DNA from: Faecalibacterium sp. CAG:74
GTDB taxonomy: Bacteria; Verrucomicrobiota; Kiritimatiellia; RFP12; UBA1067
Direction of reading: 5' to 3'
Assembly (NCBI GenBank): GCA_963588415.1
Contig: CAVAHB010000061.1
Coordinates: 1-53,524, forward strand
DNA length: 53,524 nt
Made by a program: the position numbers and the translations under genes. The number at the start of each line of letters is the position of its first letter. The stretch's first letter is position 1. Below, in pieces: positions 1,868 through 35,203 of this stretch. The notes below the pieces were generated by a model. The model did no database searches. It saw only the letters and a list, made by a program, of their open reading frames with translations, and was not told the DNA's origin.

Positions 1868-2872
1868 GTGATAATGAAAATAAGGATGACTATGCCCTTG
1901 AATGATTTCGTCCGGGCGGCGGCGTTTTGCCGTCGGGCGCACGCGGCGTTCACGCTGATTGAACTGCTGGTGGTGATCGGCATCATCGGGATTCTCGCCG
2001 GCGTGATGGCCGTCGCGTTCGGTGGCGCGACGGAATCGGCGCACGCCGCGCAATGTCTCTCGAACATGAAGAGCCTCGCGCAGGCCGCGAACGCCACGGC
2101 CATGCGGGGCAACTGGTATCCGTCGGCCGGCGCCTTCGAATACGTTGAAATCGTCGGCAGGAAGACCGGCTACTTCGAAAGCAAGGGCTGGATCAACTGG
2201 CTTTCGAATCGCGGCGACCCCTATCGGAAGCAGTCCGGCGAAGGCTATGCCACGAGCCACCAGTCCGTCGAGATCTGCCCGTTCTACGGCACGGGGACGG
2301 AGGACGACGCGACGTTCGCGATTACGAACGGTGCGATTTGGACGGCGACGGGCAAGAACCGTTCGATCTACACGTGTCCGACGCACGTGCGCTACCGTCA
2401 GGATCAGAAGATGACGGCGCCCAACTGGAGCTACGTGATGAACGCGAAGTTCGGCTATGACTATTCGCAGGGAGCGCGTGCGGTGGGCGGCGGCATCCGC
2501 TACGGCAGCCTTTCGCGCGCCGACCGTACGCTGATGTTCGCTGAACTGCCGATGTGGACGATCGAGGGCAATGTGACGAGTCCCGTGGCGGACGGCGACG
2601 GCTACGCGGCGGACTGCACCCTGCAATACAAGGCCACGGTGAGCAGCGGAACCTACGGTTCGAGCTGGGGAGGGACGCCCGAGGCGATCGGGTTCAACCA
2701 CCGGGTCGGCAAGCGCAACTTCGTCGGGCACGTCGCCTACGCCGACGGGCATGTGGCGAAAATCACCTACGTGGAAAACGGCGGACTCGACGCCAAACAG
2801 CTGACGGCGCTCCTGTGCGAGGGCAAGGACGTTGCCTTTGACGGACAGACCTACAAGGAGTTAAAAGATTAA
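1868..2872 (+). CDS. Prepilin-type N-terminal cleavage/methylation domain protein, DUF1559-like pseudopilin.
   Basis: The N-terminal AFTLIELLVVIGIIGILAGV is the class III signal/methylation motif. The C-terminal H-x9-DG-like HVAYADGHV is typical of the PVC DUF1559 family. The true start is ambiguous (GTG 1868, ATG 1874, 1886 or 1892). Confidence 0.9.
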   Translation: MIMKIRMTMPLNDFVRAAAFCRRAHAAFTLIELLVVIGIIGILAGVMAVAFGGATESAHAAQCLSNMKSLAQAANATAMRGNWYPSAGAFEYVEIVGRKTGYFESKGWINWLSNRGDPYRKQSGEGYATSHQSVEICPFYGTGTEDDATFAITNGAIWTATGKNRSIYTCPTHVRYRQDQKMTAPNWSYVMNAKFGYDYSQGARAVGGGIRYGSLSRADRTLMFAELPMWTIEGNVTSPVADGDGYAADCTLQYKATVSSGTYGSSWGGTPEAIGFNHRVGKRNFVGHVAYADGHVAKITYVENGGLDAKQLTALLCEGKDVAFDGQTYKELKD

Positions 2873-2912
2873 CAATTTTCCGAGACTTTTCGCCCCGTCG
2901 AAGACCCTGCAG

Positions 2913-11834
<8,922 letters not shown>

Positions 11835-11884
11835 CACTTGCGCAAGGACGACGGATTATGATACAATTCAAGGGAGTAAGAACG

Positions 11885-12289: not shown

Positions 12290-12316
12290 GGCAGCAGGAG
12301 TAAGGAAGATTTCAAG

Positions 12317-15300
12317 ATGAGGAAGTTGATCATGATGAAAAGGTTCATTCTTTCGTGTGCGGTGGCGGCATTCGCCGGCATTTCGGTTCTGGCGGAAGAC
12401 GCCGACCTCCGCTCCATCGACGCGGTGGGCGACTCGACTGTCTCCTACCCGAACGGTACGAGTCCCCTGAACGCGGGGCAGACGTTCTACATTCTCGTGC
12501 GTCTGCTGAACCAGGACTATGGCGAAACGATTGCTGGTGGAACGCCCCATCCGTGGTATTTCAAGTCGCTTACGGCCGGTTCGACGAATCTCGTCGAATA
12601 CATCGACAGGCCGATGCTCGCCCTTTCCATCGGCGGCAAGCGCGCCTACGCCGAATATACCTCGACAGGGCCGAAGGGCGAACTGAGCGGCCTCAACCGG
12701 GAGAAGGATGCCAACGGAAAGTTTGGCTACTACACCGACTTCTACTTCAAGCACACCGTGGAGGCGGGCGAACTCGGTCTTCCCGTGAAGCTGCTCGGCA
12801 AGAATGACGACCGCAAGGTCGGCGACGGTTCGTCCGAGGTGTTGATGGTCAACGTCAACACGGGGACGGACACCTACAACACATGGGATTTGACGAACGG
12901 CAGCACGAGCCCGCGCAATGCGGTGCTGAAGTTCGTGAACAACGGTGATATTAAACGCAACGTCATGTATCCCTCGACCCCCCACACCGCGCCGCGCACG
13001 GATGCGTCGCTTGCGGCGGAGGGCATCTACGTGCAAACGGTCGATTTCGATTCCGTCTACGACGACGAGGAGGCGGGCGTGTGGCGCGACGTCTACCCCG
13101 GGCTTTCGTCCGCCGTGCTCAATGCGCCTCGCCTGACGGGTTCGGGTCCGGCCACGGTCTACGTCTGGTCCGAGAATGAAGACGTGTTCGTCCCGGCCGG
13201 CAACAACGTGACGAACGTCAACGGAACGACGGTTCTTCCCGTCACGATCGGCAGCGGCGAGTCGTCCGCGTCGTTCAAGTTGCGCGGCGGTTCGGCGGAG
13301 GAAGGCACGACCTGCAAGATCTACATGAGTTCCACAACGTCGGCGGGTTATACCGACGTTGGCGATGAGATGGCGAACTCGACGGTTTCGCGCACGATTC
13401 GGATGCACGCCGCCCCTTCGCCGACCGTCACCTTCCGCCTGAACGGCGAAGACGACCGCGCCACCGTGACCTGTCCGACGACCAACTACTACGACCACGT
13501 GGCCCAGCTGACCGTGCGCCTTACGCCGGCCGTCGAGCACGATGTGTGGGTTGAACTCACGGCGAATCTGAACGGCACGGGCTATTTGTCGGACATCTAC
13601 GACGCGACGCTCCTCGGCATCAGCGAAAACGACGGCGGAACCGCCTATGAGAACCGGACGACGAAGGTCAGGATCCCGGCGGGTGAAAGCGTCGTCCAAC
13701 TCTATCTCTATTCGCTCGGTTGGACGAGCAAGACCGGCAGTTCGCAGCGCGGCATCGTCTTTGCGCCCGGCAAGATCTGCACCGACGAGGGAATGACGAT
13801 AGAAGACGGTGAAGTCTCGGCGAATTCGTCGGGCTGCACCCTGTTCGTGAACAGCGTCAGGCCGACGATTCTCAGCGTCGAGCCGGGCTACCCGACCGGC
13901 ACGGCGACGGCGGTCGGCGGCGTTCCGGCCGAGTTCCGCGTCACGCTCGCCGACTGCTACCGGAACAAGATGGACGAGGATACGGGCTATACGTTCAAGT
14001 GGACGTCGAGCGACAGTGAGGAACTGGAAGATTCCCCTGAAAAGGTGGAGGAGGACGGCGTTTTCACGCTCGACCAGACGTTCGTCCAGGCCGGGACGAA
14101 GACGATTAAACTTCGCGCGGTCGCCCCGTTCAACAATTCTTCGTCGGACACCGTCGAGTTCGAGCTCGTGGTCGGCAAGGCGAAACAGGTCACGGCGACC
14201 CTTCCGGGCGAGCAGCCGTGGCGCGTGGCCGAAGGCACGAGCCTGCCCGTGACGTTCGCCCTGGAGGGCGGCACGTCGAGTTCGACGACATACGCCTTCC
14301 TCGAACCGATCGACGAGGCGAGTTCGAATGCGGTCGACCTGTCGGTCGCGCCGTTTAAGACGGGCGTCGCGATTCCGAAGGGAACGTCGGCGGCCAGCTT
14401 CCAGCCCGACGTCTCGTTCCTCGATGGTACGCGCTCGTGTGAGTTCACGGTGAAACTTTCGTCCAGGCAGGAGGAGTACAAGAAGGTTGCGGGCTTTGAA
14501 AACGGCACGCTCTACGTCGTCGTGACGAACGTGCAGCCCGTCGTGACGGCGGTGACGGCGGGCGGTCTGCCCGTCGACAACGGCGGCACGGCGCGGAGCG
14601 TCCCGAAGGGCGTCAACACCTCGTTCCAGCTGTCGGCGACGGATGTCGTGGCGGACCTGGACGCGACGGGGAACGATGCGTTCATGACGAAGTGGGTGAT
14701 TTACGACGGCACGGCGACGAACATCGAGACGAACGGGAATCCGAACGGCATGACCGTCACGCACATGTTCAAGAACGACACGGTCGGTAGCGAGGGTGCG
14801 CTCGTGCAGGTCTTCCTGAAGGACAAGGATATGGCGGATTATCCCACGACGCCCGACTGGTCGTTCCGCGTGCCGGTCGCCAGGACGCCGCGCGTGACGC
14901 TCGCCTACGAGAGCGAGGCCGATACGGGCATCTGGTACGAGAACGAGAAGAACGCCCATGGCCTCAAGGTCGGGCTTTCGCAGGCGGCGACGGCCGAGGT
15001 TCAGGTCCGCGTCAGGGTGCCGAAGGCCGAAGACGGCGGCTACGTCAAGTTGAAGACGCGCACGAACGTCGTCTGGGAAGACCCCGTCAACGAGGACTGC
15101 TACATCGTCAAGTTCCCGATCGGCACGACTTCGCAGACGCTGACGGTGACGGAACTGGACGGCACCTCCGATACGTCGGCGGGCATCGACGTCGAGGCGT
15201 TCGTCATCACGACGGACGATTCCGGCTACGGGAAGCCGTGGAACGAATACTACGAGGCGGCGTCGCCGATTGCGCCGACGCTGAAAGTCCTGAACGTCGC

Positions 15301-18300
15301 CCCCGAAGGCGCGACCGTGCCGGCGGACGGTTCGACGAACACGAGCGCCAAGGTCTATACCAACTACACCGTGAAATACAAGGTGAACAGCGACGTGGCG
15401 GCCGACCTCGCCGGCGGCATCACGGTCGTTCTTTCGGTGGATGGCGATGAAGTCGAGACGACGAACGTGACGGATACGGTTCGGCGCGAGTTCGCGACGC
15501 CCGTCACGTTCACCTCGCCCGGCCTGAAGACGGTCACGGTGACTTTCACCGACAAGGACGAGAACTCCTCGACCTGCACGTTTTACTACAACGTCATGGA
15601 GACGAAGACGGTCGTCGTCTCGGCACACGATCCGGCGGCGAAGCGCAGTTCCTCGAACGGACACTCCAATCGCTACGGCAGCAACGCCAAGGGCCTTGGC
15701 GCAGGTCGCGTGGACGGTGAATCGGTCGAGCCGCAGAAAGTCGAAGGCTGGGTCTCGACCTTCTCCCTTGCCGTCACGGAATCCACTTTCCCCGTCGTTG
15801 CGACGGGCTATCAGGTGTCCGATCCGGTGAACAACAAGATTAATACGAGCGGTCGAGGACCGCTTGCGACGGGCGATACGCCCTACACCTATCTCTCCGA
15901 TTCGCGCGGCAAGGCGGGCTACGACAGTTTCTTCTACGCCTGGGTCTGCAACAACACGAAGACTTCCGACGGTCTTGAACTCGACACGGACATCATGTTC
16001 GGTCCCGGAAAGTCGAATACGCTCCCGATTCCCCTGCAGGACTACGATCCTGAGAAGAGCGCCTACGACACGCAATACTGGGAAGCCGTCTTCTCGAGGG
16101 AATGGCTCGCGAGCGACAACTGCGGCGACATCAACGCCGACGGCATTCCTGACGTCGTCGTGACGAAATACACCGGTTTCGGCATTTTCGACGAGAGCCT
16201 GACGAAGTCCGGCAACGACCTTGAGGATCTTTCGACCTGGAACGATGACGCGGACTTCTTCCCCAACACGGATACTTCGTCGTCCGCCTCGTTCATTCCC
16301 GGTCTCTCCAACACGTGGGTGACGGCGGGGACGCCGTTCGAGGCGCGCTTCGAGATCCGCGGCTGGTATGATAAGGGCGGCGAAGCGTCGAAGGCTCTCA
16401 ATGACGCGCTGCAGCAACTCGGATTTCTGGATGTCACCGCCGACGTCAATTTCACCGACCCGGCGACGGATGCAACGTCAACCCTTTCGCCCCTCGAATG
16501 GTGGGCGTTCACAAACTACTGCGCGAAAGTCGGGCGCGAGCCGACCGACACCACGATTTGGGCGGGCGGTTCGGACGCCCTCGCCTGGTCGCCCGAACGA
16601 CCGACCGACCCGACGATGACCGATACTGACGGCGATACGTTGCCGGACGGCTACGAATACTACGTCTGGTATCGTGCGCACGTCGGCTACAGCGCGAACG
16701 GCGGCTATACGAAACTGACGGGGCGGCGGTATAATCCGAAAGACCCGATGCACCCCGAAATCATCACGTCGGAGGAAATCGCCGCGCTCTACGACCCGCG
16801 TCACGACCTTTCGGGCACGGGCAGCGTCGGTATCTATACCGATACGGATAACGACGGCCTCACGGATCTCGAAGAGTTCGCGCTCGGAACGAATCCCTTT
16901 GACTTCGACACGGATGGCGACGGTCTGCCGGACGGCTACGAACTCGCGATTTCAGAAACGGATCCCCTGAAGTCCGCTTCGCAGGAATCGACGGCCGAGT
17001 CGGACGGTCTTGCGAACCCGGACGGCGACGCGATGGCGTTCTACACGGTCAAGTTGCCGATGCTCGGTTTTGCCGAGGAGGGTTCGGACGAAGTTTCGGA
17101 ATGCTGGTTCGGTGACAATGCGTGGACGCTCTTCTCCGCCGACGCGAGCGGAGCCAATCCGAAGGTCTGCTATTTCGTGAACGGCGCGGACGGAACGCGG
17201 TATCTCGTCACCGACGCCATCGTCTCCTACAAGAGGGACACGGAGGCACAGACGGCGACCGTGACCGCTTCGCTGAATGCGTATTCGGCGTGGGCGACGG
17301 GGAAGGTCGATAACGTGACGTTCTACTATCCGGGCGATGCGGCGGCGACGGTCGATCTGAACGGACTAGCCCTTAACTACGCCAAGCCGACGGAACTCGA
17401 CGCGGGCAACATCTACAAGTCGTGGGACTACGACGAGGGGACGCGAGTCGCCGGGGTCACGTGCGGCGCGGACGACCTCAAGAACCTCCTCAATCGGACG
17501 GTCGCGCTCAGCGTGACGACGAATCTCACGTTCATGCACTTCCAGGTCTACCAGAAGCTGGGCTACAACCCGCTGACGGCGACCTACTGGGAGTTGCCGG
17601 CTCCGTGGGCGGCCGTGAACACGAAGCGGTTCACCAACTACGACGAATACATGCTGATGACCTTCCTCTACCGTCAGGGATTGATTGCGGATGCGGATCT
17701 CGTGCAGACGTCGAACAGGAAGATGATGGCGATTTGGGAGAAGTTCACCACAGATCCCCTCAAGGCGGACTCCTTCGGACACGACATACCCGACGGCTGG
17801 GAACTCTACACGCTCTATGCGCCGGGCACGGCCCCTGCGGGATTGAACTCCGAAGGTCTGGGCATCTCGTCGCTGGCGGGCATCTGCCCGGTCTTGGCCG
17901 ATCCCGATCCCGACAAGGACCAGCTTTCGTTCGCCGAGGAGTTTGCGGGCATCCTTTCGACCAGTTTCTACCCGGCGAGCGACTACTGCACGATTGCCGA
18001 ACTCAATGAAAAGCAGCTGAAGTGGCGCAACAAACTGTGGGCGACCGACCCCTGGAACGAGGATAGCGACGGCGACGGCATCACCGACGGCAACGAATAC
18101 GCGGAAGCCTTCGTCTACGGGACGGAGGGTGTCGCGGGCGGCGGCCTGAACCCGCTCTCGTGGGATACCGACGGCGACGGCCTGCCCGATCCGTGGGAAC
18201 TCGAGTTCGCGGGCACGCACTCGGAGAACGCATCGTCGTCGAGTTCGACGAATGAAACGGCCAGCACCGGATGGAACAACGACGGCATGGACGGCACGGT

Positions 18301-24292: not shown

Positions 24293-24337
24293 TCGCGGCC
24301 CGTTTCGCGAATCGTGCAAGTGATGGATGGTGACAAG

Positions 24338-25477
24338 ATGAAGAAGGAAATCAGAAAAGTTTTGGTTGTCAACTCGGGTTCGAGTTCGCTCAAATACCAG
24401 CTCTTTGACATGAAGACTGAAACGCGGCTTGCCAAGGGTCTCGTGGAGCGAATTGGCGCGGGCGGACCCGCCAATCATGCCGAGGCACTGGCAAAGGTTG
24501 TCGCCGACCTCGGCAATCCGACCGACATTGACGCAATTGGCCATCGGATTCTGCACGGGGCCGAGGTCTTCAAGGATTCCGTCCTGCTGAACAAGGCGAA
24601 TCTGGCGAAGGTTCGGAAACTCGTCAAGTTCGGGCCGCTCCACATGCCGGCGAACCTTGGGGGCGTCGAGGCCTGCGAAAAGATCTTCAGGGGCGTTCCG
24701 AACGTCGGGGTTTTTGATACGGCCTTTCACCAAACGATGCCCGACTGCGCGGCACTTTATGCGATTGACCCGAAATACTACAAGAAGTATGGCATTCGCA
24801 AATACGGTTTTCACGGCACGTCGCATAAGTTCGTTACCCGGGCGGCGGCGGAATACCTCGGCAAGCCGCTTTCGAAGGTGAATCTTGTCACGTGTCATCT
24901 TGGCAACGGTTCATCGCTGGCGGCCGTTAGGAATGGCGAGGTCGTCGATACGACGATGGGGCTTACGCCGCTTGCGGGGCTTGTGATGGGCACGCGCTGC
25001 GGTGACATTGACGCGGCGGCGGTTCTGGCCATCATGGCAGCGGAGAAGCTTTCGCCTGCCGAGATGGATACGATTCTCAACAAGAAGTCCGGACTTCAGG
25101 CCGTTTCGGGTGTCGCGGGCGGCGATTGCCGCGACATCTGTGCACGGGCCGAGAAGGGCGACCGTGCGGCGGAACTCGCGCTTGAGATGCTGGCCTACCG
25201 CACGGCCCTTTACATCGGGGCCTACAATACGGTTGTAGGCGGTGCGGACGCGATTGTCATGACGGGCGGCATCGGCGAGAATTCATCCGAGGCGCGTGCG
25301 CGGATTATCGGACGGCTTGGGGCTTTGGGCGTCAAGTTGGATCGTCGGGCGAACGCCAAGGCGCATGGCGTGACGGCCGTTCTTTCGACGAAAGACTCGA
25401 AGATTCCCGTCGTCGTGTTGCCGACGAACGAGGAACTGATGATTGCGCGCGATACGGTGCGCGTTCTCTCGAAGTAA
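24338..25477 (+). CDS. ackA: Acetate kinase.
   Basis: MKKEIRKVLVVNSGSSSLKYQLFDM at the N-terminus, plus FHGTSH and the MTGGIGENS motif. I prefer the ATG at 24338 over the tracked GTG at 24314. Confidence 0.95.
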   Translation: MKKEIRKVLVVNSGSSSLKYQLFDMKTETRLAKGLVERIGAGGPANHAEALAKVVADLGNPTDIDAIGHRILHGAEVFKDSVLLNKANLAKVRKLVKFGPLHMPANLGGVEACEKIFRGVPNVGVFDTAFHQTMPDCAALYAIDPKYYKKYGIRKYGFHGTSHKFVTRAAAEYLGKPLSKVNLVTCHLGNGSSLAAVRNGEVVDTTMGLTPLAGLVMGTRCGDIDAAAVLAIMAAEKLSPAEMDTILNKKSGLQAVSGVAGGDCRDICARAEKGDRAAELALEMLAYRTALYIGAYNTVVGGADAIVMTGGIGENSSEARARIIGRLGALGVKLDRRANAKAHGVTAVLSTKDSKIPVVVLPTNEELMIARDTVRVLSK

Positions 25478-25490
25478 AGGAGATTGCGAA

Positions 25491-26528
25491 GTGAGTGCGA
25501 TAGCGGATATTATCAAGCGGGCATCGAAGTTGAACGGGACGATTGTCCTGCCGGAGGGGATGGATCCCCGCGTCATTACGGCGGCCTGTGCCTGTGTGGA
25601 TCGCCACATCTGTACACCCGTCGTTCTCGGTACGGCGGAGGAGATTGCCGTTGCGGAGGAGAAGGCCGGCTTGCACCTCACCGACCGTGCCATTCAGACG
25701 ATTGACTACACGAAGGGCGATGCGGAACTTGAGGCGGCCTATCTTGAGGCCTGGAATGCGAAGGAATCGCGCAAGCCCGCCGAGAAGCAGAAAATCATCG
25801 ACCTCGCGGGTGCGCAGAAGACGCTTCGTACGAAGCGCATTTACTTCGGCGGCATGATGGTGAAGTTGGGGCGGGTCAATGGACTTGTCGCGGGTTCGAT
25901 TGCCTCGACGGGCGACATGCTGCGGGCGGCCTTCCACACGCTGGGAACGCAAAAGGGCGTGAAGACGGCGAGTTCGTGCTTCCTGCTCGACCTGAAGAAC
26001 CCCACCCCGTCGGGCGATTCCGTCCTGGCGTTCGGCGACTGCGCCGTCATTCCCAATCCGACGGCCGAACAACTCGTGGATATCGGCCTTGCCACGGCGC
26101 AGACCTATCGCGACCTGACGGGTTGCGCCCCGCGTGTCGCCTACCTGAGTTTCTCGACGAAGGGGAGCGCGGCGGGCGAACTCGTTGAGAAGGTTCAGAA
26201 AGCCGTTGAACTTGCAAAACCACGCTTTGCCGAGAAGGGCATTCCCATGGATGGCGAACTTCAGTTCGACGCGGCGATTGCTCCCGCCGTCGGCCGCCTG
26301 AAAAATCCTGACGGAACGATTCAGGGAAATGCAAACGTCTTCATCTTCCCCGACCTTCAGGCGGGCAACATCGGCTACAAGATCGCTCAGCGCCTCGGCG
26401 GCGCGACGGCAATCGGCCCGAATCTCCAGGGCCTTGCCAAGGCGATGAACGACCTTTCACGCGGATGCTATGCCGAGGACATTGTCGGCACAATCTGCGT
26501 CACCCTCCTCCAGAGTACAACGAAATAG
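25491..26528 (+). CDS. pta: Phosphate acetyltransferase (short form).
   Basis: GTIVLPEGMDPRVITAA and ANVFIFPDLQAGNIGYKIAQRLGGA are typical PTA_PTB motifs. A GTG start at 25491 lies 8 nt after AAGGAG (25477-25482). The tracked start at 25443 overlaps ackA. Confidence 0.92.
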   Translation: MSAIADIIKRASKLNGTIVLPEGMDPRVITAACACVDRHICTPVVLGTAEEIAVAEEKAGLHLTDRAIQTIDYTKGDAELEAAYLEAWNAKESRKPAEKQKIIDLAGAQKTLRTKRIYFGGMMVKLGRVNGLVAGSIASTGDMLRAAFHTLGTQKGVKTASSCFLLDLKNPTPSGDSVLAFGDCAVIPNPTAEQLVDIGLATAQTYRDLTGCAPRVAYLSFSTKGSAAGELVEKVQKAVELAKPRFAEKGIPMDGELQFDAAIAPAVGRLKNPDGTIQGNANVFIFPDLQAGNIGYKIAQRLGGATAIGPNLQGLAKAMNDLSRGCYAEDIVGTICVTLLQSTTK

Positions 26529-26535
26529 GAAACGA

Positions 26536-27525
26536 ATGACGGCAAACGACCAGATTCAGCGGGCGCGGCAAGTCTTCGACATTGAAATCGAAGGGCTTCG
26601 GCGGACGCGAGACTCCATCGGGAAAAGTTTCACCGATGCGGTCGAACTGATGCTGAATGTCGTTTCAAATGACGGTATCGTCGTCGTTTCTGGCGTTGGC
26701 AAGAATCTTCACGTCGCCGAAAAGATGAGCGCGATTTTCGCCTCGACGGGTACGCGCTCGATTGTCCTGAATCCCGTGCAGGCGATGCATGGCGATCTCG
26801 GCATGGTTTCGGCGCGTGACGTGCTGCTGGCCCTTTCGTTCAGCGGCGAATCGGACGAAGTCATTCGCCTGATTCCAGCGATTCGACGGCACGGTCTGAA
26901 GGTCGTTTCCATGACGGGCAATTCCAACTCGACGCTGGCGCAGATGAGCGATGTGCACATTGAGATTCCGTGCGGACGCGAGGCTTGTCCGTTCGGCATG
27001 GCCCCAACGAATTCGACGACGGCGACGATGGCGATGGGCGACGCTTTGGCGATGGTGATGATTGATGCGCAGAAGTTCCCGATTGAGAATTATGCGATGA
27101 ATCATCCGGCAGGCGCGATTGGTCGTGCGCTCGTCATGAAGGTGACGGACGTGATGCGCACGGGCGAACGGTTGGCGCGTGTTGCGCCGACGGCGACGGT
27201 GATGGAGACCCTGCTGGCCATGACGAAGGCCCAGTCCGGTTCGGCCGTCGTTTCGGATGCGGATGGCCTTCTGCTCGGTATCTTTACGGACGGTGACTTC
27301 CGGCGGATTATGGCGCAGGCGGCGGATCGTTCGGGTGTTCTCGGCGACCGAATTGAGACGCACATGACGCACGAGCCGCTGTTCGTCCGCGACGATGTCT
27401 ACGCGGCTGAGTTACTGAAGGTCTTCGAGCGGAAACGGATTGACGACCTTCCCGTGTGCGATTCGCTCGGCCATGTCGTCGGTCTTGTCGATATTCAGGA
27501 TTTGCCCAAAATGAAGGTTCTCTAA
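26536..27525 (+). CDS. kpsF: KpsF/GutQ-family arabinose-5-phosphate isomerase (SIS domain plus tandem CBS domains).
   Basis: SIS motif VVVSGVGKNLHVAEKMSAIFASTG. The C-terminal CBS pair includes DLPVCDSLGHVVGLVDIQDL. ATG at 26536. Confidence 0.88.
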   Translation: MTANDQIQRARQVFDIEIEGLRRTRDSIGKSFTDAVELMLNVVSNDGIVVVSGVGKNLHVAEKMSAIFASTGTRSIVLNPVQAMHGDLGMVSARDVLLALSFSGESDEVIRLIPAIRRHGLKVVSMTGNSNSTLAQMSDVHIEIPCGREACPFGMAPTNSTTATMAMGDALAMVMIDAQKFPIENYAMNHPAGAIGRALVMKVTDVMRTGERLARVAPTATVMETLLAMTKAQSGSAVVSDADGLLLGIFTDGDFRRIMAQAADRSGVLGDRIETHMTHEPLFVRDDVYAAELLKVFERKRIDDLPVCDSLGHVVGLVDIQDLPKMKVL

Positions 27526-27544
27526 TAAAGAAAGGAACGAAAGC

Positions 27545-28270
27545 ATGAACGCGAAACAGATGATTCTCCTGACAACAGTTCTCTCGGTTGCCGCCGTGGT
27601 GGTTGCCGCGCCGACGCGGAAGTCTGCGCGTAATGCGAAGGCGGACGCTTCGGAAGAGGCGGCACCCGTTTCGGGCGTCGATGCGAAGATTACGATCGAC
27701 CAGTTCCCGAAGACGGGACGGGCCTCAACGCTGATGGCTCCGTCCCTGTCGGGAGCTTCCATCATCGGCCAGTGCTATACGAAGCCGCGCAAGTGGATTG
27801 TGCTCGAGTCGAAGTACACGACGTATGCCCGCTGGCAGGATCAACTGACCTTTACCTGGCATGTGCTGCTTGAGACGAAGAGCGCGACGGAGAAGGACAA
27901 GACGGATAAACTCCCCCCCTACTCCTATTTTTCCACGTCCGTCACCTACGCGAACATTCCGAAGGGGTCGCATGCGGCGAGCGTCTGTCTGCATCCCTCC
28001 TACCTTGAGCGGTATGGCGAGCCGAAGGCAATCGGTCTTGTGATTGCGAACAAGGAAGGCACGGTTCTGGCCGGCGACTGCGAGAGTGAAATCAAGGGCA
28101 TCCCGACCCACCCGAAGACGCTTGAGCAGGCCTTCTGGAACAACAACGACATTATGAACGCCACGCAGAACGGCGAGCCGATGATCGAGCGCCGTCAGGG
28201 TCTGCAGGATCGCGCGAAGACGATTTGGTCGATGGTGAATCCGAATGACTACGAAATGGTGGTGCAGTAA
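27545..28270 (+). CDS. Secreted protein (241 aa). This is the first gene of the pilus-like module and is Amuc_1102-like by position and size.
   Basis: Signal peptide MNAKQMILLTTVLSVAAVVVAAP. Its stop overlaps the next start (TAATG at 28268-28272). I could not verify sequence-level homology by eye. Confidence 0.6.
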   Translation: MNAKQMILLTTVLSVAAVVVAAPTRKSARNAKADASEEAAPVSGVDAKITIDQFPKTGRASTLMAPSLSGASIIGQCYTKPRKWIVLESKYTTYARWQDQLTFTWHVLLETKSATEKDKTDKLPPYSYFSTSVTYANIPKGSHAASVCLHPSYLERYGEPKAIGLVIANKEGTVLAGDCESEIKGIPTHPKTLEQAFWNNNDIMNATQNGEPMIERRQGLQDRAKTIWSMVNPNDYEMVVQ

Positions 28271-29880
28271 TGGCTAAGAAGTTTCTGGCACTTGACATCG
28301 GGGCGGCGAACGTCGCCCTCGCCGAGTATGAGGCGGGGTCCGGAGGGGGCTCGACGCTTGTCCGCTACGGCCTTGCGCCGCTGGCGGCCTCGCTTGATTC
28401 GGGTGATGCGCAGACGATTCTCGTTCCGGCCCTGATGGAATGTGTGCGTACGTCTGGCATCCGGCCAGGCCCCGTGGCGATTTCCGTCTCGGGGCAGATG
28501 GCGTTTTACCGTTTTGCCGCGATTCCGCGCGGCGGCAGCGAGGAGAAGTTCGAGCAACTGGTTCGCTACGAAATTGAGCAGAACGTCCCGTTCCCAATCG
28601 ATGAGATGGTGAGCGACCGTCAGGTGCTCGGCGAGACGGAAAGCGGCGACAAGTCCGTGATGATTGTCTCGGCCAAGATTGACCAGATTGAGGCGATTAC
28701 GACGGCTGTTGCGTCCGCCGGCTTCCGTCCCGAACTTGTGGACGTTGCACCGATTGCCCTCACGAATGCGCTGAAGTTCGTCAAGCCGAACGATTCCTCC
28801 TGCGTCGTTTTGCTGGATATTGGGGCGAAGACGACGTCGCTTGTCATCGTCGAGGGCGACAAGGTCTACAATCGGTCGATTCCGATTGCGGGCAACAACA
28901 TCACGCGTGAAATTGCGCAGACCCTTGGCTGTTCCCACGAGGAGGCCGAAGCCATCAAGCGCGAACGGGCGTATGTGGCCGCCGGCGGAGTGGCGGAGGA
29001 CGAGGACCCGACGCTCGACCGCGTGTCGAAAGTTTGCCGCGCCGTTATGACGCGCCTTCAGGCCGAGATCTCACGCAGCATCAACTTCTACCGCTCGCAG
29101 CAGGGCGGTTCCGCCCCAGTTCGCCTCTACCTGACGGGCGGCACGGCGCTTCTGCCGCGCCTTGACGAGTTCTTTGCGGAGAATCTGCGCCTTGAGGTTG
29201 AGTTCTTCAATCCGTTTGAGGCGATGGGTGTGGCCGCTTCGATTGATGCCGATGCATTTGGTTCTGATGGTGCGCTTCTCGCCGCGACGGCTGGCGTTGC
29301 GCTTCACCTTTCTGGCGCGGCGCATTTCGCCATCAACCTCCTTCCGCCGTCGATTGTCGCCGAACGGGCCGAGAAGGCGAAGATTCCCGTTGTTGCCGGC
29401 GCGGGTGTCGTGCTGCTCATTGCCCTGATCCTGGGTTACTTGGGCGTAAGCCACGCATTGGTCGTGTCGGCGGAGGTCGTCGACCGGGTCAATGCGAAGG
29501 CAGAGTCGCTCAGCTCGTATGACAAGAAGGTCAAGGCCGTCACGGCGGAAATCGAGAAGTCGTCCGCAGAGGCGGAGAACTTCCGGAAACTGTTGGCGGC
29601 CCGTTCGTCCGTTGCGCTTCGTCTGAACGCGGTTGGCGCGGCGCTTGCGCAGGGAATGTGGATTGAGAAGTGGGAGCCTGGACGCATCACCATCCGCGGT
29701 TGGAAGGATTGTCTGCAGAGGTTCGAGAAACAGGGCGGCGATCAGGCCATCGCCTCCGAACTCGTCGCCAACCGCCTGAAAAACTCCGCAATTGTCGATC
29801 CGCAGAGCGTCAAGATCTCGGGCATGAAGACGATTGGCGAAAGTATTGAACAATTCACAGTGGAGTTGAAGTTCAAATGA
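28270..29880 (+). CDS. PilM-like actin-fold ATPase fused to a transmembrane, PilN/PilO-like C-terminal region (Amuc_1101-like).
   Basis: LALDIGAANVALAEY and VLLDIGAKTTSLVIVEGDKVYNRSIPIAGNNITREIA match PilM/FtsA-type phosphate motifs. A TM helix (IPVVAGAGVVLLIALILGYLGV) is followed by a coiled-coil tail. Confidence 0.85.
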   Translation: MAKKFLALDIGAANVALAEYEAGSGGGSTLVRYGLAPLAASLDSGDAQTILVPALMECVRTSGIRPGPVAISVSGQMAFYRFAAIPRGGSEEKFEQLVRYEIEQNVPFPIDEMVSDRQVLGETESGDKSVMIVSAKIDQIEAITTAVASAGFRPELVDVAPIALTNALKFVKPNDSSCVVLLDIGAKTTSLVIVEGDKVYNRSIPIAGNNITREIAQTLGCSHEEAEAIKRERAYVAAGGVAEDEDPTLDRVSKVCRAVMTRLQAEISRSINFYRSQQGGSAPVRLYLTGGTALLPRLDEFFAENLRLEVEFFNPFEAMGVAASIDADAFGSDGALLAATAGVALHLSGAAHFAINLLPPSIVAERAEKAKIPVVAGAGVVLLIALILGYLGVSHALVVSAEVVDRVNAKAESLSSYDKKVKAVTAEIEKSSAEAENFRKLLAARSSVALRLNAVGAALAQGMWIEKWEPGRITIRGWKDCLQRFEKQGGDQAIASELVANRLKNSAIVDPQSVKISGMKTIGESIEQFTVELKFK

Positions 29881-30884
29881 GCAAACCGAAGATTGTCCTG
29901 GCCGCCGTCGGCGGAGCGATTGTGCTGGTATCACTGGTGCTCGGCGTCTTGATTTGGAGAGTGGTGTCGGCACGGTCGGAGAATGTCGCTGACCTGAATG
30001 CGAAGACTTCCTCCGCCAACACCCTTATGGCGAAGTCGGTCTATCCCGGGCCAAAGGGTGTGAAGGCTCTGGAGTCGAATCGTGCGGAATATACGTCGTG
30101 GAATGCTTCCGCACGCGAACTCGCCGCGCAGGGCGATTGCTCGTTTGAAAAGACGACCGCGCCCGCGTTCAAGGCCTTCCTCGTCGAGGAAGCCCATCGT
30201 CTGGCCGAATTGCCGGGCGGTGTCGAAGGCCGGCTCGTCAAGCCGGGTTTCGCCTTCGGCTTCAGTTCGTACATCACCGAGGATAAGATTCCTGAAGAGG
30301 CCGACCTTGCGAACCTCCAGCGCGAATGGTTCGACATCTCAACGGTAATCAAGGCCCTCGCCGTGACGGGTGTCGTTGAAATTGCGGAAGTTACACGACA
30401 GACGAAGGTCGCCGCCCCGGCGGAGCCGGATGCGAATGCTTCGCGCAAGGCGAAGAAACGGCGGAATGCGAAAGCCGAGGCGGAGGCCGCCGCGAAGGCC
30501 CCGCTCGTTTCGGCCTTCACCGTCGTCTTCCGTGCGAAACCGCAGGGGCTCGTCAACGCCGTCAACGCCATCGTTTCCTCGCGCCGCTTCATCGTGGTGG
30601 ACGAGATGAGTTTCACCCGCGAAGAGGATTCGCTTGCGGATTTGCTGAGCGGGGATACGAAGAAGGAAAATGCGCCTTCGCGCCGCTCGTCGCGCCGCAG
30701 AAACAGGGGCGGCGAAGCGGCGGATGAAGAAGCCACGCAGCCGAAGGGGCTCGTTCCGGGCGGCCTTGTGACGGATCCGGCGTACGCCCCGCTCCTGAAG
30801 GTGTCGATGACATTCTCCGTCTACGATTTCCGTACGCGGCAAAACGAGAATCCGAATGAGAATGAGCAGGGGGAGGGAAAATGA
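29877..30884 (+). CDS. Amuc_1100-family pilus-like membrane protein.
   Basis: N-terminal TM helix (IVLAAVGGAIVLVSLVLGVLIW). Collinear similarity to remembered A. muciniphila Amuc_1100 segments: TAPAFKAFLVEE versus TPTAFQNELKTF, LVNAVNAIVSSRRFIVVDEMSFTRE versus LKAMNAITGMQDYLFTVNSIRIRNE, and LLKVSMTFSVYDF versus VFVQVSLNLVHF. ATGA overlaps are present at both ends. Confidence 0.75.
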   Translation: MSKPKIVLAAVGGAIVLVSLVLGVLIWRVVSARSENVADLNAKTSSANTLMAKSVYPGPKGVKALESNRAEYTSWNASARELAAQGDCSFEKTTAPAFKAFLVEEAHRLAELPGGVEGRLVKPGFAFGFSSYITEDKIPEEADLANLQREWFDISTVIKALAVTGVVEIAEVTRQTKVAAPAEPDANASRKAKKRRNAKAEAEAAAKAPLVSAFTVVFRAKPQGLVNAVNAIVSSRRFIVVDEMSFTREEDSLADLLSGDTKKENAPSRRSSRRRNRGGEAADEEATQPKGLVPGGLVTDPAYAPLLKVSMTFSVYDFRTRQNENPNENEQGEGK

Positions 30885-31978
30885 TGTCAAGGAATGGTAA
30901 TTTCTTCGCCGCTCACTATGAGTGGCTGGCCGTCGGCGTTGCGGTTCTTGCGCTCGTTGCGTCCGTCGTCTATTTCGCAAGCGAACTCGGTGTCGATCCG
31001 GATGCGGCGGCGGCGGATGCCGTCCGCCAACTGGATGCCAGGGATCGTGACGGAAAGGGCGTGACGCCCGTCGATCTGCGGGAGTATAACATCGCGGCGG
31101 GATTCGTCCGCTCCTCCAACAATGCACTGGTCAGAGAAATAAAGGGGGCGGAGGCAAGTTTTCTCGCGTCGGAAAAGCGCATTGCCTGCCGCTTCTGCAC
31201 CAAGCCGATCCCGTTCGGCTCGAAGACCTGTTGGGCGTGCGGGAAAGCCCAGCCCGTGGAGAAGGTCGTCGCACTGGATTCGGATGGCGACGGAATGCCG
31301 GACGAATGGGAAAAGCGCTACGGACTGAATCCCGACGATGCGGGCGATGCGAACCTCGACAAGGATGGCGACGGCTTCACCAACCTTGAGGAATATCTGG
31401 CGGGCACGGATCCGACGGATGCGAAGTCCCACCCCGACTATCTGGATTCGCTGAAGATTGACTTGCCGCTGAAGGAGACGTTCCTGCCGTTCTACTTCCG
31501 CAATGCGACGAAGACGCCGGCCGGCATGCGTCTCGAGTTCTTCGACCCGAAGCGGAAGAGCGATTATGGCACATCTGGCTACCGCTATTCGGTGCTGGAA
31601 GGCGCGGACATTGGTGATACTGGCTTCGTCGCGAAGAAATACGAGCACAAGACCGCGAAGCAGAAAATCAGCGGCGGCGGCGCCGGTATGGAAAAGTCCG
31701 TGGATATCTCGGTCGTTCGGATCGTGCGCAAGTCGGATAAGAAGGAGATCGTCCTTCAGAAGGACGTGATGCGCAAGCCGGTGGATGTTCAGGCGAAACT
31801 CGTCTTCACCCGCAACACGCGGGTTGAGGAGTTCATGGTCGTGCCCGGCGACACAATTTCCCTTTATGGCGAGAAATACGTCGTCAGGGCGATTGTTGGC
31901 AAGGGGAAGGGTGCGTCCGTCACGCTTGAACAGGTCGAGAGCGGCAAGACGCGCAAACTTGAAGCACTTGAACCGTAA
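30881..31978 (+). CDS. Membrane-anchored pilus-assembly-associated protein with a zinc ribbon and two TSP3-like repeats (Amuc_1099-like by position).
   Basis: TM helix WLAVGVAVLALVASVVYF. Zn-ribbon-like CRFCTKPIPFGSKTCWAC. DSDGDGMPDEWEKRYGLNPDDAGDANLDKDGDGFTNLEEYLAGTDPTD at nt 31277-31422. Confidence 0.65.
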   Translation: MMSRNGNFFAAHYEWLAVGVAVLALVASVVYFASELGVDPDAAAADAVRQLDARDRDGKGVTPVDLREYNIAAGFVRSSNNALVREIKGAEASFLASEKRIACRFCTKPIPFGSKTCWACGKAQPVEKVVALDSDGDGMPDEWEKRYGLNPDDAGDANLDKDGDGFTNLEEYLAGTDPTDAKSHPDYLDSLKIDLPLKETFLPFYFRNATKTPAGMRLEFFDPKRKSDYGTSGYRYSVLEGADIGDTGFVAKKYEHKTAKQKISGGGAGMEKSVDISVVRIVRKSDKKEIVLQKDVMRKPVDVQAKLVFTRNTRVEEFMVVPGDTISLYGEKYVVRAIVGKGKGASVTLEQVESGKTRKLEALEP

Positions 31979-31996
31979 GCGGAATTAGGTTATAAT
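31968..31996 (+). promoter_or_regulatory. Putative internal sigma70-type promoter for the secretin gene (TTGAAC, 17-bp spacer, TATAAT).
   Basis: TTGAAC at 31968-31973, exactly 17 bp of spacer, TATAAT at 31991-31996. SD-like GAAGGA lies about 12 nt before ATG 32030. Confidence 0.55.
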
Positions 31997-32029
31997 ACAC
32001 AACTGAAAACTGAAGGAATAGGTTTTGAT

Positions 32030-35000
32030 ATGACGAACTTGAAAACTTTGACAGCAATCGGTGCGACCGTGGCCCTCGTGGCCGTCGGTTCGTCTGCGTT
32101 CGCGCAAGATGATCTTGACGATCTTCTGAAGGATCTTGAAAGCGACGTGGCGGCCGAACAGGCCGAAGCCCCGAAGCCCGCAGTTGCGGCGCCCGCCGCG
32201 CCGGAAGCACCCGCGCCGGCGGTCGAACCCGCCGCGCCCGAACCTGCGGCGGAGCCGAAGGCCGAGGATCCGGCCGCTGCTCCGGCCGAAGAGCCGAAGG
32301 CTGAGGGTGCGTCTGCCGCCGAAGAGCCGGTGGCCGAGGAGACCGCCGCCGAAACGGAAGCACCAGCCGCCGAATCGGTTCAGGAGCAGCCGAAGCCCGA
32401 AGCCCCGAAGGCCGAGACGCCGGCCGAAGAGTCGAAGGATGCCGAACTGCTGGCGGATATCCGTGCGATGGAGCAGATTCGCCGCAAGGCATTCGATTCC
32501 CAGGCGCGCCGCGAAGTCGCTGAAGCGCGTCAGTGTATGGAAGCGAAGGAATATGTGGATGCCGAGAAGCACTACCGTCTGGCGTATCGCCTTTTGAACG
32601 ATCGTCCGAGTTCGGCGAAATTTCGCCGCGAATGCGAACAGGGAATGGCCGAGGCCCTCTACCGTGCGGCGCTTCTGGAGGAGCAGACGGGGCGCCGTAC
32701 CCGTGCGATTGAATTGATTGAACAGGCAATCGACATGCGCCACCCGAAGGCCCGTCGCCAGCTCGAGGCCTGGTTGAAGGAAGGCGACCCCTCGGCGCAG
32801 AAGACGGATGTTTCGGAAATCATGCACCGCCGCAACGAGGAGGAGTACAAGGCTGCCCGCGTTAAGATTCGCAATCACCTGCGCCGTGCGAAACAGTTGC
32901 TGTCCACCCGCGAGATTGATCGGGCTCTTGACGAGTGCGAGCTCGTCCTCGTGAGCGACCCGTACAATCAGGAGGCGATTCGTCTACGCAATGCGATTCA
33001 GAAGAAGCGCCAGACGATTCTGAAGCAGGAGTTCGACTCGACTCGCGACGGTTACATCGCAGATGTCACGAAGGCCTGGCGACCCGTCTACGCTCCCAAT
33101 GCGCGGCAGATTGAGAATGCGGCCGGAACGACCGTCAAGAAGAGTCTTGGCGACGACCCCGAACGTTCGCTTGAGCAGAGCATCATCCAGCGGATGCGCG
33201 AAATGCGTCTGCCGACGATTTCCTTCAAGCCGCCGGCGACGATCATTGACGCGGTCGAATACTTCCGCGGCGCGTCGAAGGACTTCGACCGTCCCGACCT
33301 CCCCCTTGACCAGCGCGGCTTCAACTTCGTTCTGAAAACTCCAGAAACGCTGCGCACGAAAGCCGCCGAAACCACGACGGACGATTCGGGCTTCGGCTCC
33401 GACGCCGAGGAAGATTCTCAGTCCGGCCAGTCGGGCATCCCCGTGATCCCGATGATTACCGCGAGCAACATCACCTTCTACGATGCGTTGAAACTCGTTT
33501 GCGAATCGGTGGACTACAAGTTCAAGGTGCAGGGACCGATCGTTATGGTCATGCAGAAGAACATGTCCACGGACGAGATGGTCACGCGCAGTTATCCCGT
33601 CGTCGCGGCCTTCCTTGAGCGTATCGGCAGCGCGACTTCCGACATCAAGGAACTGAAGACGACGAGCAGTTTCGGCAGCAACAACTCCTCTCGTCGCGAC
33701 GAGGGCGAGGAGAATCAGGAACGCGACTGGAAGGAGTTCTTCTCCTTGATGGGCGTTCAGTGGCCGGAGGGCAGTTCGATTCTCTACATCAAGACCTTGG
33801 GCAAACTCCGCGTCAAGAACACCTACGAGAACCTTGCCGAACTCGAGAAGGCCCTGACCGAACTCAACGTTGACCAGAAGCTCATTGAGATTGAGGCCCG
33901 CTTCGTCGAGGTCTGTCAGGAGGATTTGAACTCTCTTGGTTTCGAGTGGATTCTCAACAGCGACTACAGCCTCAACACCGGCAGTCTCGGCAAATGGCTC
34001 GGCGTAAAGGACGGCGCGTGGGGAACGAGCAGCGGCTCGACCACCTATTCGTCCGAGACGGCCCCGGTGACGGGGACGACGGGCGGCACGACGACGAAGA
34101 CACTTGATTCGATTGTCTCGAAGAGCGAATCGACCTACTATTCGCGCAGCCAGAATGCAGATTGGACGCGCGGACGGGGCTCGACGAAGAGCAACATCGG
34201 CATCAACGCCTTTGGCGGCACTTCGTCGGATTACGGCAACGGCAACCGCTATCTCTCGACGGTCGGCAACCACATTTCGGGAAGCGAGAACTCCACGAAC
34301 GATCAGTTCATGCGGATGAACGCCTTCCTCGGCAGCGCGGATCTTTCGATGATTCTCCACATGCTCTCCCAGCGGAGCGATACCGACCTTCTCTCCGCGC
34401 CGAAGGTGCTCACGCGCCCGGGCGAAGAGGCCGTCATCAAGGTCGTCACCGAATACATCTACCCGACTGACTACGACGTGCAGTTGCAGTCCAGTTCCTC
34501 TTCGAGTTCGGGCAACAGCAGCGGCGGGCAGAGCGCGATTCTCGCCGTCGTCGAGCCGCAAAGTTTCGTCACTCGTGAAGTCGGTGTCATTCTTGACGTC
34601 ACCCCGACGCTGACGGACGACGGCAACCTGATCGACCTCAAGCTCAACACGCAGGTTGTCGATGAGCCGACGTGGAAGAACTACGGTATGCGCATCCCGT
34701 TCACAGGCAACAGTTCGATGCAGAGTTTCGAGGGCATTGGCGACATCTTCACGGGTCTGAGTGCGGCACTGACGACGATTGGTGCGACACTGACCGATAC
34801 CGCGAAGGCGGCCTTCACGGAACAGTTGATGGATTCTGCGACCTCGGCCATGAGCAACCTGACTGGCAAGGAAAACATCACCTACTACGACGCGCCGATG
34901 GAACAGCCGTTCTTCCATGTACGGTCGGTCGATTCGTCGGTTTCGATCTATCCGGGTGCGACGATTGTGATGGGCGGTCTCATCACCGAGGCGCGCAAGG

Positions 35001-35203
35001 CGATGGACGACAAGATTCCGTTCCTCGGCGACCTTCCCTTCATCGGGCGTCTCTTCCGCAGCCATGCCGAACAGACGACGAAGCGCAATCTGCTGATTTT
35101 CGTCACCACGCGTTTGGTCGATGTCCGCGGGCGTGAAGTCTCGATGGGCGCGAGCGGCGACGAGGCCGCCGCCGAGGTGAAGGAAGCCCCGAAGGCCAAG
35201 TAA
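32030..35203 (+). CDS. Secretin-family outer-membrane channel (PilQ/GspD-like, Amuc_1098-like) with a Pro/Ala/Glu-rich linker and Ser/Thr/Gly-rich inserts.
   Basis: Signal peptide ...VAVGSSAFA. A PAE-rich low-complexity stretch of about 100 aa lies at nt ~32150-32440. The C-terminal secretin signature is IPFLGDLPFIGRLFRS...KRNLLIFVTTRLV. Confidence 0.88.
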   Translation: MTNLKTLTAIGATVALVAVGSSAFAQDDLDDLLKDLESDVAAEQAEAPKPAVAAPAAPEAPAPAVEPAAPEPAAEPKAEDPAAAPAEEPKAEGASAAEEPVAEETAAETEAPAAESVQEQPKPEAPKAETPAEESKDAELLADIRAMEQIRRKAFDSQARREVAEARQCMEAKEYVDAEKHYRLAYRLLNDRPSSAKFRRECEQGMAEALYRAALLEEQTGRRTRAIELIEQAIDMRHPKARRQLEAWLKEGDPSAQKTDVSEIMHRRNEEEYKAARVKIRNHLRRAKQLLSTREIDRALDECELVLVSDPYNQEAIRLRNAIQKKRQTILKQEFDSTRDGYIADVTKAWRPVYAPNARQIENAAGTTVKKSLGDDPERSLEQSIIQRMREMRLPTISFKPPATIIDAVEYFRGASKDFDRPDLPLDQRGFNFVLKTPETLRTKAAETTTDDSGFGSDAEEDSQSGQSGIPVIPMITASNITFYDALKLVCESVDYKFKVQGPIVMVMQKNMSTDEMVTRSYPVVAAFLERIGSATSDIKELKTTSSFGSNNSSRRDEGEENQERDWKEFFSLMGVQWPEGSSILYIKTLGKLRVKNTYENLAELEKALTELNVDQKLIEIEARFVEVCQEDLNSLGFEWILNSDYSLNTGSLGKWLGVKDGAWGTSSGSTTYSSETAPVTGTTGGTTTKTLDSIVSKSESTYYSRSQNADWTRGRGSTKSNIGINAFGGTSSDYGNGNRYLSTVGNHISGSENSTNDQFMRMNAFLGSADLSMILHMLSQRSDTDLLSAPKVLTRPGEEAVIKVVTEYIYPTDYDVQLQSSSSSSSGNSSGGQSAILAVVEPQSFVTREVGVILDVTPTLTDDGNLIDLKLNTQVVDEPTWKNYGMRIPFTGNSSMQSFEGIGDIFTGLSAALTTIGATLTDTAKAAFTEQLMDSATSAMSNLTGKENITYYDAPMEQPFFHVRSVDSSVSIYPGATIVMGGLITEARKAMDDKIPFLGDLPFIGRLFRSHAEQTTKRNLLIFVTTRLVDVRGREVSMGASGDEAAAEVKEAPKAK

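Follow-up and report, generated by a model that had tools for sequence, protein, structure and literature searches.

A MUL2-type Amuc_1102-1098 locus in gut Kiritimatiellae and its clade-specific neighborhood of giant secreted proteins

Within the 53,524 nt of contig CAVAHB010000061.1 analyzed here (hereafter the window), a 33-kb array of closely spaced genes encodes, in order and all on the + strand, a prepilin-like protein, two giant proteins (giant1 and giant2) separated by a small lipoprotein, the enzymes AckA, Pta and KpsF, and the products of a five-gene module (Table 1). We find this module to be a true Amuc_1102-1101-1100-1099-1098 locus, of the type known as MUL2 in Akkermansia, as judged from NCBIfam assignments, an Amuc_1100 profile and a structural model of the Amuc_1102-like protein. 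What is new is the extension of this known locus type to the Kiritimatiellae, where it lies in a clade-specific neighborhood. We favor, with a probability of about 0.68, an explanation of the array as three adjacent leading-strand units with separate functions: the prepilin-like protein, giant1, lipoprotein and giant2 would form the first (unit A), ackA-pta and the KpsF-type isomerase a housekeeping unit (unit B), and the module a self-contained MUL2 locus (unit C, 27545-35203).

The Amuc_1100 locus is medically prominent while its mechanism is still unsettled, and the same five-gene machine, with recognizable Amuc_1102 and Amuc_1100 folds, is present in gut Kiritimatiellae. In addition, giant2, an orphan secreted protein of around 4000 amino acids (aa) which invariably precedes the module in one clade, offers a concrete and testable candidate partner. 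The co-directional gene order, with very short or overlapping junctions, that an earlier note on this DNA had described was reproduced by our listing of open reading frames (ORFs) and by Pfam and NCBIfam scans of the gene products, which place the junctions within 1868-35203 between 4-nt overlaps and gaps of about 50 nt. As one contig of an independent assembly (Logan) spans giant1, the lipoprotein gene and giant2, the arrangement is not an assembly artifact.

Identity and predicted architecture of the module

In Akkermansia, Amuc_1098-1102 has been called a type IV pili cluster (PMC5332112, PMC10688800), and its proteins are among the most abundant of the envelope (PMC5332112). The locus has since been named MUL2 and implicated genetically in mucin uptake and attachment, and Amuc_1102 has been described as pilin-like (PMC13174399, PMC12418764); the earlier note's statement that the cargo or fiber of this apparatus is not established has in part been overtaken by this work.

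The same note had matched the module to Amuc_1102-1098 by gene order and architecture, and in this it was right, as several independent comparisons agree. The best NCBIfam matches of the second to fifth genes are the Amuc_1101, 1100, 1099 and 1098 families, respectively. The Amuc_1099-like protein scores 70.8 bits against a cut-off of 50, and additionally matches TSP3_bac; the scores for the Amuc_1101, 1100 and 1098 families fall under the NCBIfam equivalog cut-offs. The secretin matches both the Pfam Secretin domain (E=2e-31) and Amuc_1098_fam (E=9e-124). Precomputed Pfam records on identical proteins assign the first and third products to PF28178 (Amuc_1102) and PF28028 (Amuc_1100). An AlphaFold2 (AF2) model of the Amuc_1102-like protein, with a predicted local distance difference test score (pLDDT) of 86.7, gave a single strong Foldseek match, to the crystal structure of Amuc_1102 itself (7DSZ; E=2.6e-10, TM-score 0.69). 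The Amuc_1100-like protein found no match in the PDB as a single sequence, and a profile built from 28 of its orthologues matched solved Amuc_1100 (6LAD, 6KNY) over its full length (E=3e-7). Identity to the Akkermansia structures is around 18%.

The topology predicted for these proteins points to an envelope-spanning assembly. The Amuc_1101-like protein comprises a PilM domain (residues 8-346), a transmembrane (TM) helix at approximately 368-386 and a periplasmic tail of around 150 aa, and exceeds the cut-off of the TIGR01175 pilM model (167 bits against 133); its predicted architecture is that of a PilM-PilN fusion, and resembles GspL of type II secretion, which likewise joins a PilM domain, TM helix and periplasmic tail. 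The Amuc_1100- and Amuc_1099-like proteins each bear an N-terminal TM helix, and the secretin matches the PilQ model TIGR02515 at 114 bits, under its cut-off. No PilN, PilO or PilP match was obtained among the module proteins with Pfam or NCBIfam, and their TM topology is compatible with such roles. By analogy, the module fits an alignment complex of the PilM-N/PilO/PilP/PilQ type, the likeness to type IVa PilMNOPQ and to GspC/L/M/D consisting in an actin-like PilM domain, bitopic partners and a secretin encoded as one five-gene unit, and Amuc_1100 and Amuc_1099 being putative counterparts of PilO and PilP. The first gene, for the Amuc_1102 beta-sandwich, lacks a counterpart in pilMNOPQ, and no ATPase, platform or peptidase gene is linked. 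Domain scans found no GspE, GspF or GspG-K set in the window, which has only one prepilin-like gene, and a GspE/PilB Walker motif near the module was absent from the window and from 134 of 135 loci.

If the analogy to PilMNOPQ holds, then the pilin-like secreted beta-sandwich, the PilM-PilN-type fusion, the two bitopic inner-membrane proteins and the PilQ-type secretin of unit C would together make up the alignment complex that spans the envelope, and the gate in the outer membrane, of a type IV filament machine, for which the ATPase, platform protein and prepilin peptidase would have to be supplied by genes elsewhere.

Neighborhood of the module in the gut/rumen clade and beyond

A scan with a 12-sequence Amuc_1102 alignment, against one genome per GTDB species, recovered 80 loci, mostly from gut or rumen metagenome-assembled genomes of Kiritimatiellae type, a few record titles naming unrelated taxa; the Amuc_1102-like family as a whole comprises 229 clusters at 50% identity. 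The five-gene order is identical in all 80 loci. In every one of the 61 that reach more than 600 nt upstream of ackA, a giant2 orthologue ends just before ackA-pta-kpsF and the module, which makes giant2 a core gene of the clade. These ORFs lie on the + strand and are collinear with giant2 residues 1500-3991 or so, and most remain open to the edge of the locus; gene tables give the full length of two of them, 4033 and 4285 aa. Identities range from 74 to 97% for ackA, and from 26 to 81% for both giant2 and Amuc_1100. A search with the PilM-like protein returned close relatives exclusively among its best 120 matches.

The block is also tightly packed. From giant2 through kpsF, the three median distances from stop to next gene are 38, 36 and 14 nt, and at six of eight junctions the medians lie between -3 and 38 nt (61-79 relatives); the two longer medians (112 nt between the kpsF stop and Amuc_1102, and 446 nt ahead of the secretin gene) are counted up to the residue at which the alignment starts, and thus take in N-termini that do not align. 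On the other side of the module the flank varies, the secretin gene being followed by elongation factor G (EF-G) in the window, by hisH/hisF in the relatives closest to it and by NUDIX/QueH in others. Secreted proteins of around 1000 aa with Listeria-Bacteroides repeats (Flg_new) are also encoded a few kb 3' of the secretin gene, as at 17615-20707 of locus L027 and in about 40 other loci of the clade.

More distant relatives were represented by 55 metagenome loci, which were retrieved with an alignment of distant Amuc_1102 proteins and are 25-35% identical to the protein of the window. Wherever a locus is long enough to include the module, the 1102-1101-1100-1099-1098 order is kept, and in all 11 with at least 5 kb upstream, giant2, ackA, pta and kpsF are absent; small apparent giant2 matches in this set were spurious, falling on the TSP3 repeats of Amuc_1099. 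As the module stands alone in these loci, the association with giant2 does not extend over the wider lineage. The co-localization of giants and secretin module that the earlier note proposed thus holds for giant2 within the clade (61/61) and fails in the distant loci (0/11).

The flank that persists over the greatest distance is a different one. Downstream of the secretin gene, coaE is found in 11 of the 12 distant loci with 1 kb or more of sequence beyond that gene, with rho in nine distant loci as well; among the 80 gut-clade loci, tblastn detects coaE in 43 and rho in 38 (coaE and rho Pfam-confirmed). This coaE-rho link is lost in the window and its nearest relatives, where EF-G and hisH/hisF, respectively, take its place. 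Both genes are drawn beside the MUL2 loci of Akkermansiaceae, where a secretion-system channel protein, coaE, rho and aroQ are the only other genes shown (PMC13174399). The deeply conserved neighbors of the module are therefore unrelated housekeeping genes, and within the clade the synteny of ackA, pta and kpsF with the module equals that of giant2. Since the module is linked to coaE and rho across classes, and to ackA-pta-kpsF as strictly as to giant2, its neighborhood does not constitute evidence of shared function. More broadly, gene neighborhood at a MUL2-type locus is not readable as function, which tempers any claim of a new export system for giant adhesins.

Taken with Akkermansia muciniphila Amuc_1098-Amuc_1102, the likeness extends to the same five genes in the same order, each product matched by a family model or solved structure, and to coaE and rho as the next genes in most gut-clade and distant relatives (PMC13174399). 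The differences are that the host belongs to the gut Kiritimatiellae rather than to the Verrucomicrobiales, that the gut-clade locus is preceded by giant2-ackA-pta-kpsF, and that in the window genome EF-G replaces coaE-rho. Under the three-unit explanation, the giant2-ackA-pta-kpsF-module order would have been fixed in the ancestor of the gut clade and kept tightly packed, possibly in co-transcribed form, and this clade-specific linkage would argue no more strongly for physical coupling than does the association, older still, of coaE and rho with the module.

The giant proteins and the prepilin-like protein

Both giants begin with hydrophobic, signal-like segments, and neither ends in a C-terminal barrel or membrane anchor. 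They share no detectable similarity with one another and contain no internal repeats by BLASTP, and sequence searches of solved structures returned no match for either. Beyond Gly_rich_2, giant1 contains no domain recognized by Pfam or NCBIfam and matches nothing in the PDB; a PHROG search yielded phrog_2295, on the N-terminus only. Protein database searches with the giants, giant2 being used in 800-aa pieces, yielded nothing longer than about 1400 aa. The relatives of giant1 found there are Gly_rich_2 ones only, the nearest at the N-terminus being a stand-alone protein of 752 aa and a fragment cut off by the end of its contig, which is at least 791 aa long and is preceded by a PDDEXK gene. 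The lipoprotein belongs to no Pfam or NCBIfam family.

In giant2, TSP3_bac calcium-binding repeats occupy approximately residues 1420-1990 and recur at 3070, and Laminin_G_3 spans approximately 2458-2568. The last 800 residues were modeled (AF2, pLDDT 66) as a string of beta-sandwiches resembling fibronectin type III (FnIII) or immunoglobulin (Ig) domains, plus helices, with generic matches to fibronectin-type arrays and phage tail proteins. All 62 orthologues end in ..L(S/T)SGF[FY][KR][VI]x[VIL]xx-stop (24230-24289 in the window). This motif, which is modeled as the last strand of the terminal beta-sandwich, is kept despite overall identities of only 30-45% or so, and could be a recognition or anchoring element. 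Taken together, these features suggest that the giants are orphan, Sec-exported surface-type proteins built of beta-sandwiches. As constituents of unit A they would be surface or extracellular proteins that are rich in beta-sandwiches, bind calcium and carry lectin domains, for which adhesion or glycan capture would be the most plausible role.

Among known systems, the giant adhesins of type I (LapA, SiiE, MpIBP) and type V (TpsA, autotransporter) secretion offer a likeness, being very large, beta-sandwich-rich, calcium-binding and extracellular. The window giants differ from these in carrying N-terminal Sec-type signals, in lacking repeats by BLASTP, and in lacking RTX, Big or cadherin arrays. 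Pfam scans found no type I features (RTX repeats in the giants, an ABC/MFP/TolC set in the window) and no type V features (a C-terminal beta-barrel, POTRA plus ShlB TpsB) in the giants or their neighbors.

Three further observations concern giant2. Stand-alone secreted proteins of around 940 aa (P0005-P0012; noted in loci L004 and L005) are about 45% identical, over some 520 aa, to its C-terminal 800 residues, and lack its terminal motif. The gene for one of these, P0009 (L004 10001-12817), stands within a phage-like row that comprises small family-less ORFs, a first ORF with tail-fiber PHROG matches and the gene for an LPD38 protein of 2681 aa. It may be that a module of a host giant protein has been copied into a phage or mobile element. 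TSP3 calcium-binding repeats are, in addition, common to giant2 (12317-24292) and the Amuc_1099-like protein (30881-31978). Horizontal acquisition of the giant genes themselves is disfavored by their composition (GC 0.61-0.65, against 0.59-0.63 elsewhere), and by the universal presence of giant2 in the clade.

The prepilin-like gene contains the only prepilin motif in the window. Its product bears a class III signal, ..RRAHAA/FTLIELLVVIGIIGILAG, containing ..AAFTLIELLVV.., and a C-terminal ..YADGHV motif, and has weak N-terminal matches to GspH and GspG, far under the curated cut-offs. The DUF1559 label that it had been given was not borne out, as PF07596 was not detected by a search that extended to E=5 (HMMER filters drop most matches above ~0.1), leaving N_methyl by itself. 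The canonical DUF1559 C-terminal motif is H-X9-DG. Like the DUF1559/H-X9-DG prepilin-like proteins known from Planctomycetes, Verrucomicrobia and Lentisphaerae, the window protein starts as a prepilin and has ..DGHV as a C-terminal motif, and it differs from them in lacking PF07596 and in its H..DG spacing. It is, however, 28% identical (E=2e-6) to a DUF1559 prepilin which adjoins the module in distant locus L094. The suggestion that it serves as a pseudopilin piston drew no support from any test.

Strand and transcription signals

The run of + strand genes begins at 366 and extends to around 40.9 kb, beyond the array on both sides; cumulative GC skew climbs over its entire length, and the coding strand switches only after ~40.9 kb, as checked by the GC content of third codon positions (GC3). 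With a run wider than the array and a rising GC skew, co-orientation looks like a property of the leading strand or chromosomal arm, and not like one specific to the proposed cluster.

That no strong terminator precedes 35243, as had been claimed, was confirmed. The hairpin at 35243-35297 is the sole convincing intrinsic terminator of the array (a fold as stable as -27 kcal/mol was reached by none of 200 shuffled sequences), and at the four internal junctions tested, folding was no better than that of shuffles. The signal at 31968-31996 is not the only internal promoter-like match, contrary to what had been thought: others lie at 11831-11859 and 24264-24293, in addition to the one just 5' of the prepilin gene (1833-1862) and one at 35367. 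The number of such sites is not clearly above that in shuffled sequence.

Weighing the explanations

Several findings weigh against a division of the array into separate units. The block from giant2 to the module is unbroken in 61 species while the flank beyond the secretin gene has been rearranged several times, a stability above that expected of a neutral neighborhood. One strong terminator serves the whole array, which makes co-transcription, and hence co-regulation of giant2 and the module, plausible. No other outer-membrane exporter is encoded nearby, whether a type I secretion system, a TpsB protein or an autotransporter domain. Among the distant loci, L090 encodes at 1-5877 (minus strand) a giant of at least 1959 aa with a signal peptide, collinear with giant1 residues ~1185-2540 at 23-26% identity (E=1e-12 and 1e-8). 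This remote homologue, which occurs in no other locus fetched, is divergently transcribed about 2 kb from a unit of prepilin gene plus module. Prepilin genes also stand directly 5' of Amuc_1102 in five distant loci (L088 at ~199, L090 at ~7758, L093 at ~105, L094 at ~8820 and L096 at ~4409), which may derive from one lineage. The L094 prepilin, the one that was scanned with Pfam, carries DUF1559 (PF07596, E=1.4e-6) plus N_methyl, and prepilin-like proteins of its kind may be a subunit used by MUL2-type machines.

The best placed of the alternatives, which we nevertheless regard as rather unlikely, is that the array constitutes one long co-expression unit, or 'uber-operon', of highly expressed envelope and fermentation genes whose products make no giant-secretin contact. 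The short or overlapping junctions of the window and its relatives, the want of a significant hairpin at internal junctions ahead of the strong terminator, the position on the leading strand, and the high abundance of Amuc_1098-1102 proteins in the Akkermansia envelope (PMC5332112) are all consistent with this. Against it, the promoter-like matches at 11831, 24264 and 31968 make internal transcription starts possible, and 33 kb would be an uncommon length for a primary transcript.

A second alternative is that giant2, and perhaps giant1, is the cargo or surface fiber of the Amuc_1098-type secretin, reaching the periplasm via Sec and then crossing the secretin by being pushed or threaded, and that the prepilin-like protein belongs to a pseudopilus. 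In its favor are the strict synteny and tight junctions of giant2 and the module (61/61), the single terminator at the end of the array, Sec signals on the giants with no alternative exporter nearby, the GspL-like fused architecture of the Amuc_1101-like protein, the giant1 homologue near the prepilin-plus-module unit of L090, and the prepilin genes directly 5' of the module in the five distant loci. We consider it improbable, as ackA, pta and kpsF are equally (100%) syntenic and lie between giant2 and the module, and coaE and rho are syntenic with the module at greater depth than giant2 is, so that neighborhood is not predictive of function here. Further, ORFs above 1000 aa are absent upstream in 10 of the 11 distant loci that reach at least 5 kb in that direction, and the exception, in L090, is on the opposite strand by GC3; no ATPase or platform genes are linked to the module. 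To our knowledge, proteins of 300-420 kDa are far larger than any known type II secretion substrate. The published Akkermansiaceae maps, which draw only the genes named above around MUL2 (PMC13174399), also speak against export, as does the fact that the Akkermansia locus is tied genetically to mucin uptake and attachment, and not to protein export (PMC12418764, PMC13174399).

Equally little credence attaches to a broader form of this idea, in which giant2 and the MUL2-type filament machine, perhaps with giant1 and the prepilin-like protein, are one functional unit, giant2 being a secretin-dependent fiber or glycan-capture protein and the array one regulon. If this were so, then giant2 would help a pilus-like apparatus to attach to polysaccharide from the host or its diet, or to take it up, and would be the first identified partner protein of an Amuc_1100-type apparatus.

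Most doubtful is an independent cassette of prepilin, giant1, lipoprotein and giant2, in which the giants would serve a type IV filament as adhesins, either at its tip or as accessories, much as in the case of PilY1/PilC-type proteins or of the prepilin-containing 'Verru_Chthon' cassettes, with the Amuc machine as a generic pilus gate: the prepilin gene does lie 40 nt upstream of giant1 after a promoter-like site, a weak match to Verru_Chthon cassette protein D was obtained (E=4e-5), and the giant1 homologue and prepilin of L090 are at most 2 kb apart, but a prepilin N-terminus is missing from the giants, no prepilin gene precedes P0020, the closest relative of giant1 that could be detected, and the Verru_Chthon NCBIfam match is far under its cut-off.

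Features of the window

The features of the array and its flanks are collected in Table 1. The lengths of the orthologues of Pta (346 aa) and of the KpsF/GutQ-type isomerase (329 aa) accompany the probable starts given there, and the nadB-like product downstream is a flavin adenine dinucleotide (FAD)-dependent oxidoreductase of L-aspartate oxidase/fumarate reductase type. Rfam and tRNA scans found no RNA families or tRNAs in the window.

Table 1. Positions of the array genes, transcription signals and flanking genes in the window.
Feature	Position	Strand	Details and basis
AAA_14/DUF4143 ATPase gene	366-1709	+	
Sigma-70-like promoter match, just 5' of prepilin gene	1833-1862	+	TTGCAA-18-TATAAT, TG extended; consensus match only
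Array of 13 closely spaced genes	1868-35203	+	ORF listing, Pfam/NCBIfam scans
Type IV prepilin-like protein, 332 aa	1868-2872	+	Likely start ATG 1874; N_methyl E=1.2e-6
giant1, 2973 aa	2913-11834	+	N-terminal hydrophobic signal-like segment; Gly_rich_2 at residues 42-301
Small lipoprotein, 134 aa	11885-12289	+	Alternative start 11858; lipobox AAAGC, MKRAFQRKWVLAAAISIAAAGC..; helical, charged
giant2, 3991 aa	12317-24292	+	Sec signal peptide, TSP3_bac, Laminin_G_3
ackA, acetate kinase	24314-25477	+	Probable start ~24338; Acetate_kinase E=2.6e-131
pta, phosphotransacetylase	25443-26528	+	Probable start ~25488; PTA_PTB E=7e-96
KpsF/GutQ-type sugar-phosphate isomerase	26470-27525	+	Probable start ~26536; SIS + 2 CBS
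Amuc_1102 (MUL2A)-like secreted beta-sandwich protein, 241 aa	27545-28270	+	PF28178, structure model
Amuc_1101 (MUL2B)-like protein, 536 aa	28270-29880	+	PilM_2 E=3e-42, Amuc_1101_fam E=1e-115
Amuc_1100-like bitopic membrane protein, 335 aa	29877-30884	+	Amuc_1100_fam (NF038287) E=2e-16, PF28028
Amuc_1099-like bitopic protein, 365 aa	30881-31978	+	CxxC..CxxC motif, TSP3 repeats
Amuc_1098-family secretin, 1057 aa	32030-35203	+	Long Ala/Pro/Glu-rich N-terminal linker
Intrinsic terminator	35243-35297	+	15-bp hairpin then U-tract UUUUUCUUU; -27 kcal/mol, z=-4.17, 0/200 shuffles
EF-G, BatA/VWA protein, nadB-like FAD-dependent oxidoreductase, ABC ATPase	35375 to ~40.9 kb	+	

Two minor observations concern the ends of the + strand run. 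Near its start, an exact 21-nt direct repeat, CACAGAACACACAGAAGCCGC, occurs at 96-116 and 1791-1811, where none is expected by chance; both copies run into a short GC hairpin, and together they bracket the AAA_14/DUF4143 ATPase gene (366-1709). Lying just upstream of the promoter-like site of the prepilin gene, the pair could be a repetitive extragenic palindromic (REP)-like element, or the footprint of an inserted gene. At the other end, three ORFs (40912-41541, 41526-42560 and 42561-43052) which belong to no Pfam family fill 40.9-43.05 kb, and their codon-position GC suggests that they are coded on the minus strand, and would thus end the + strand run.

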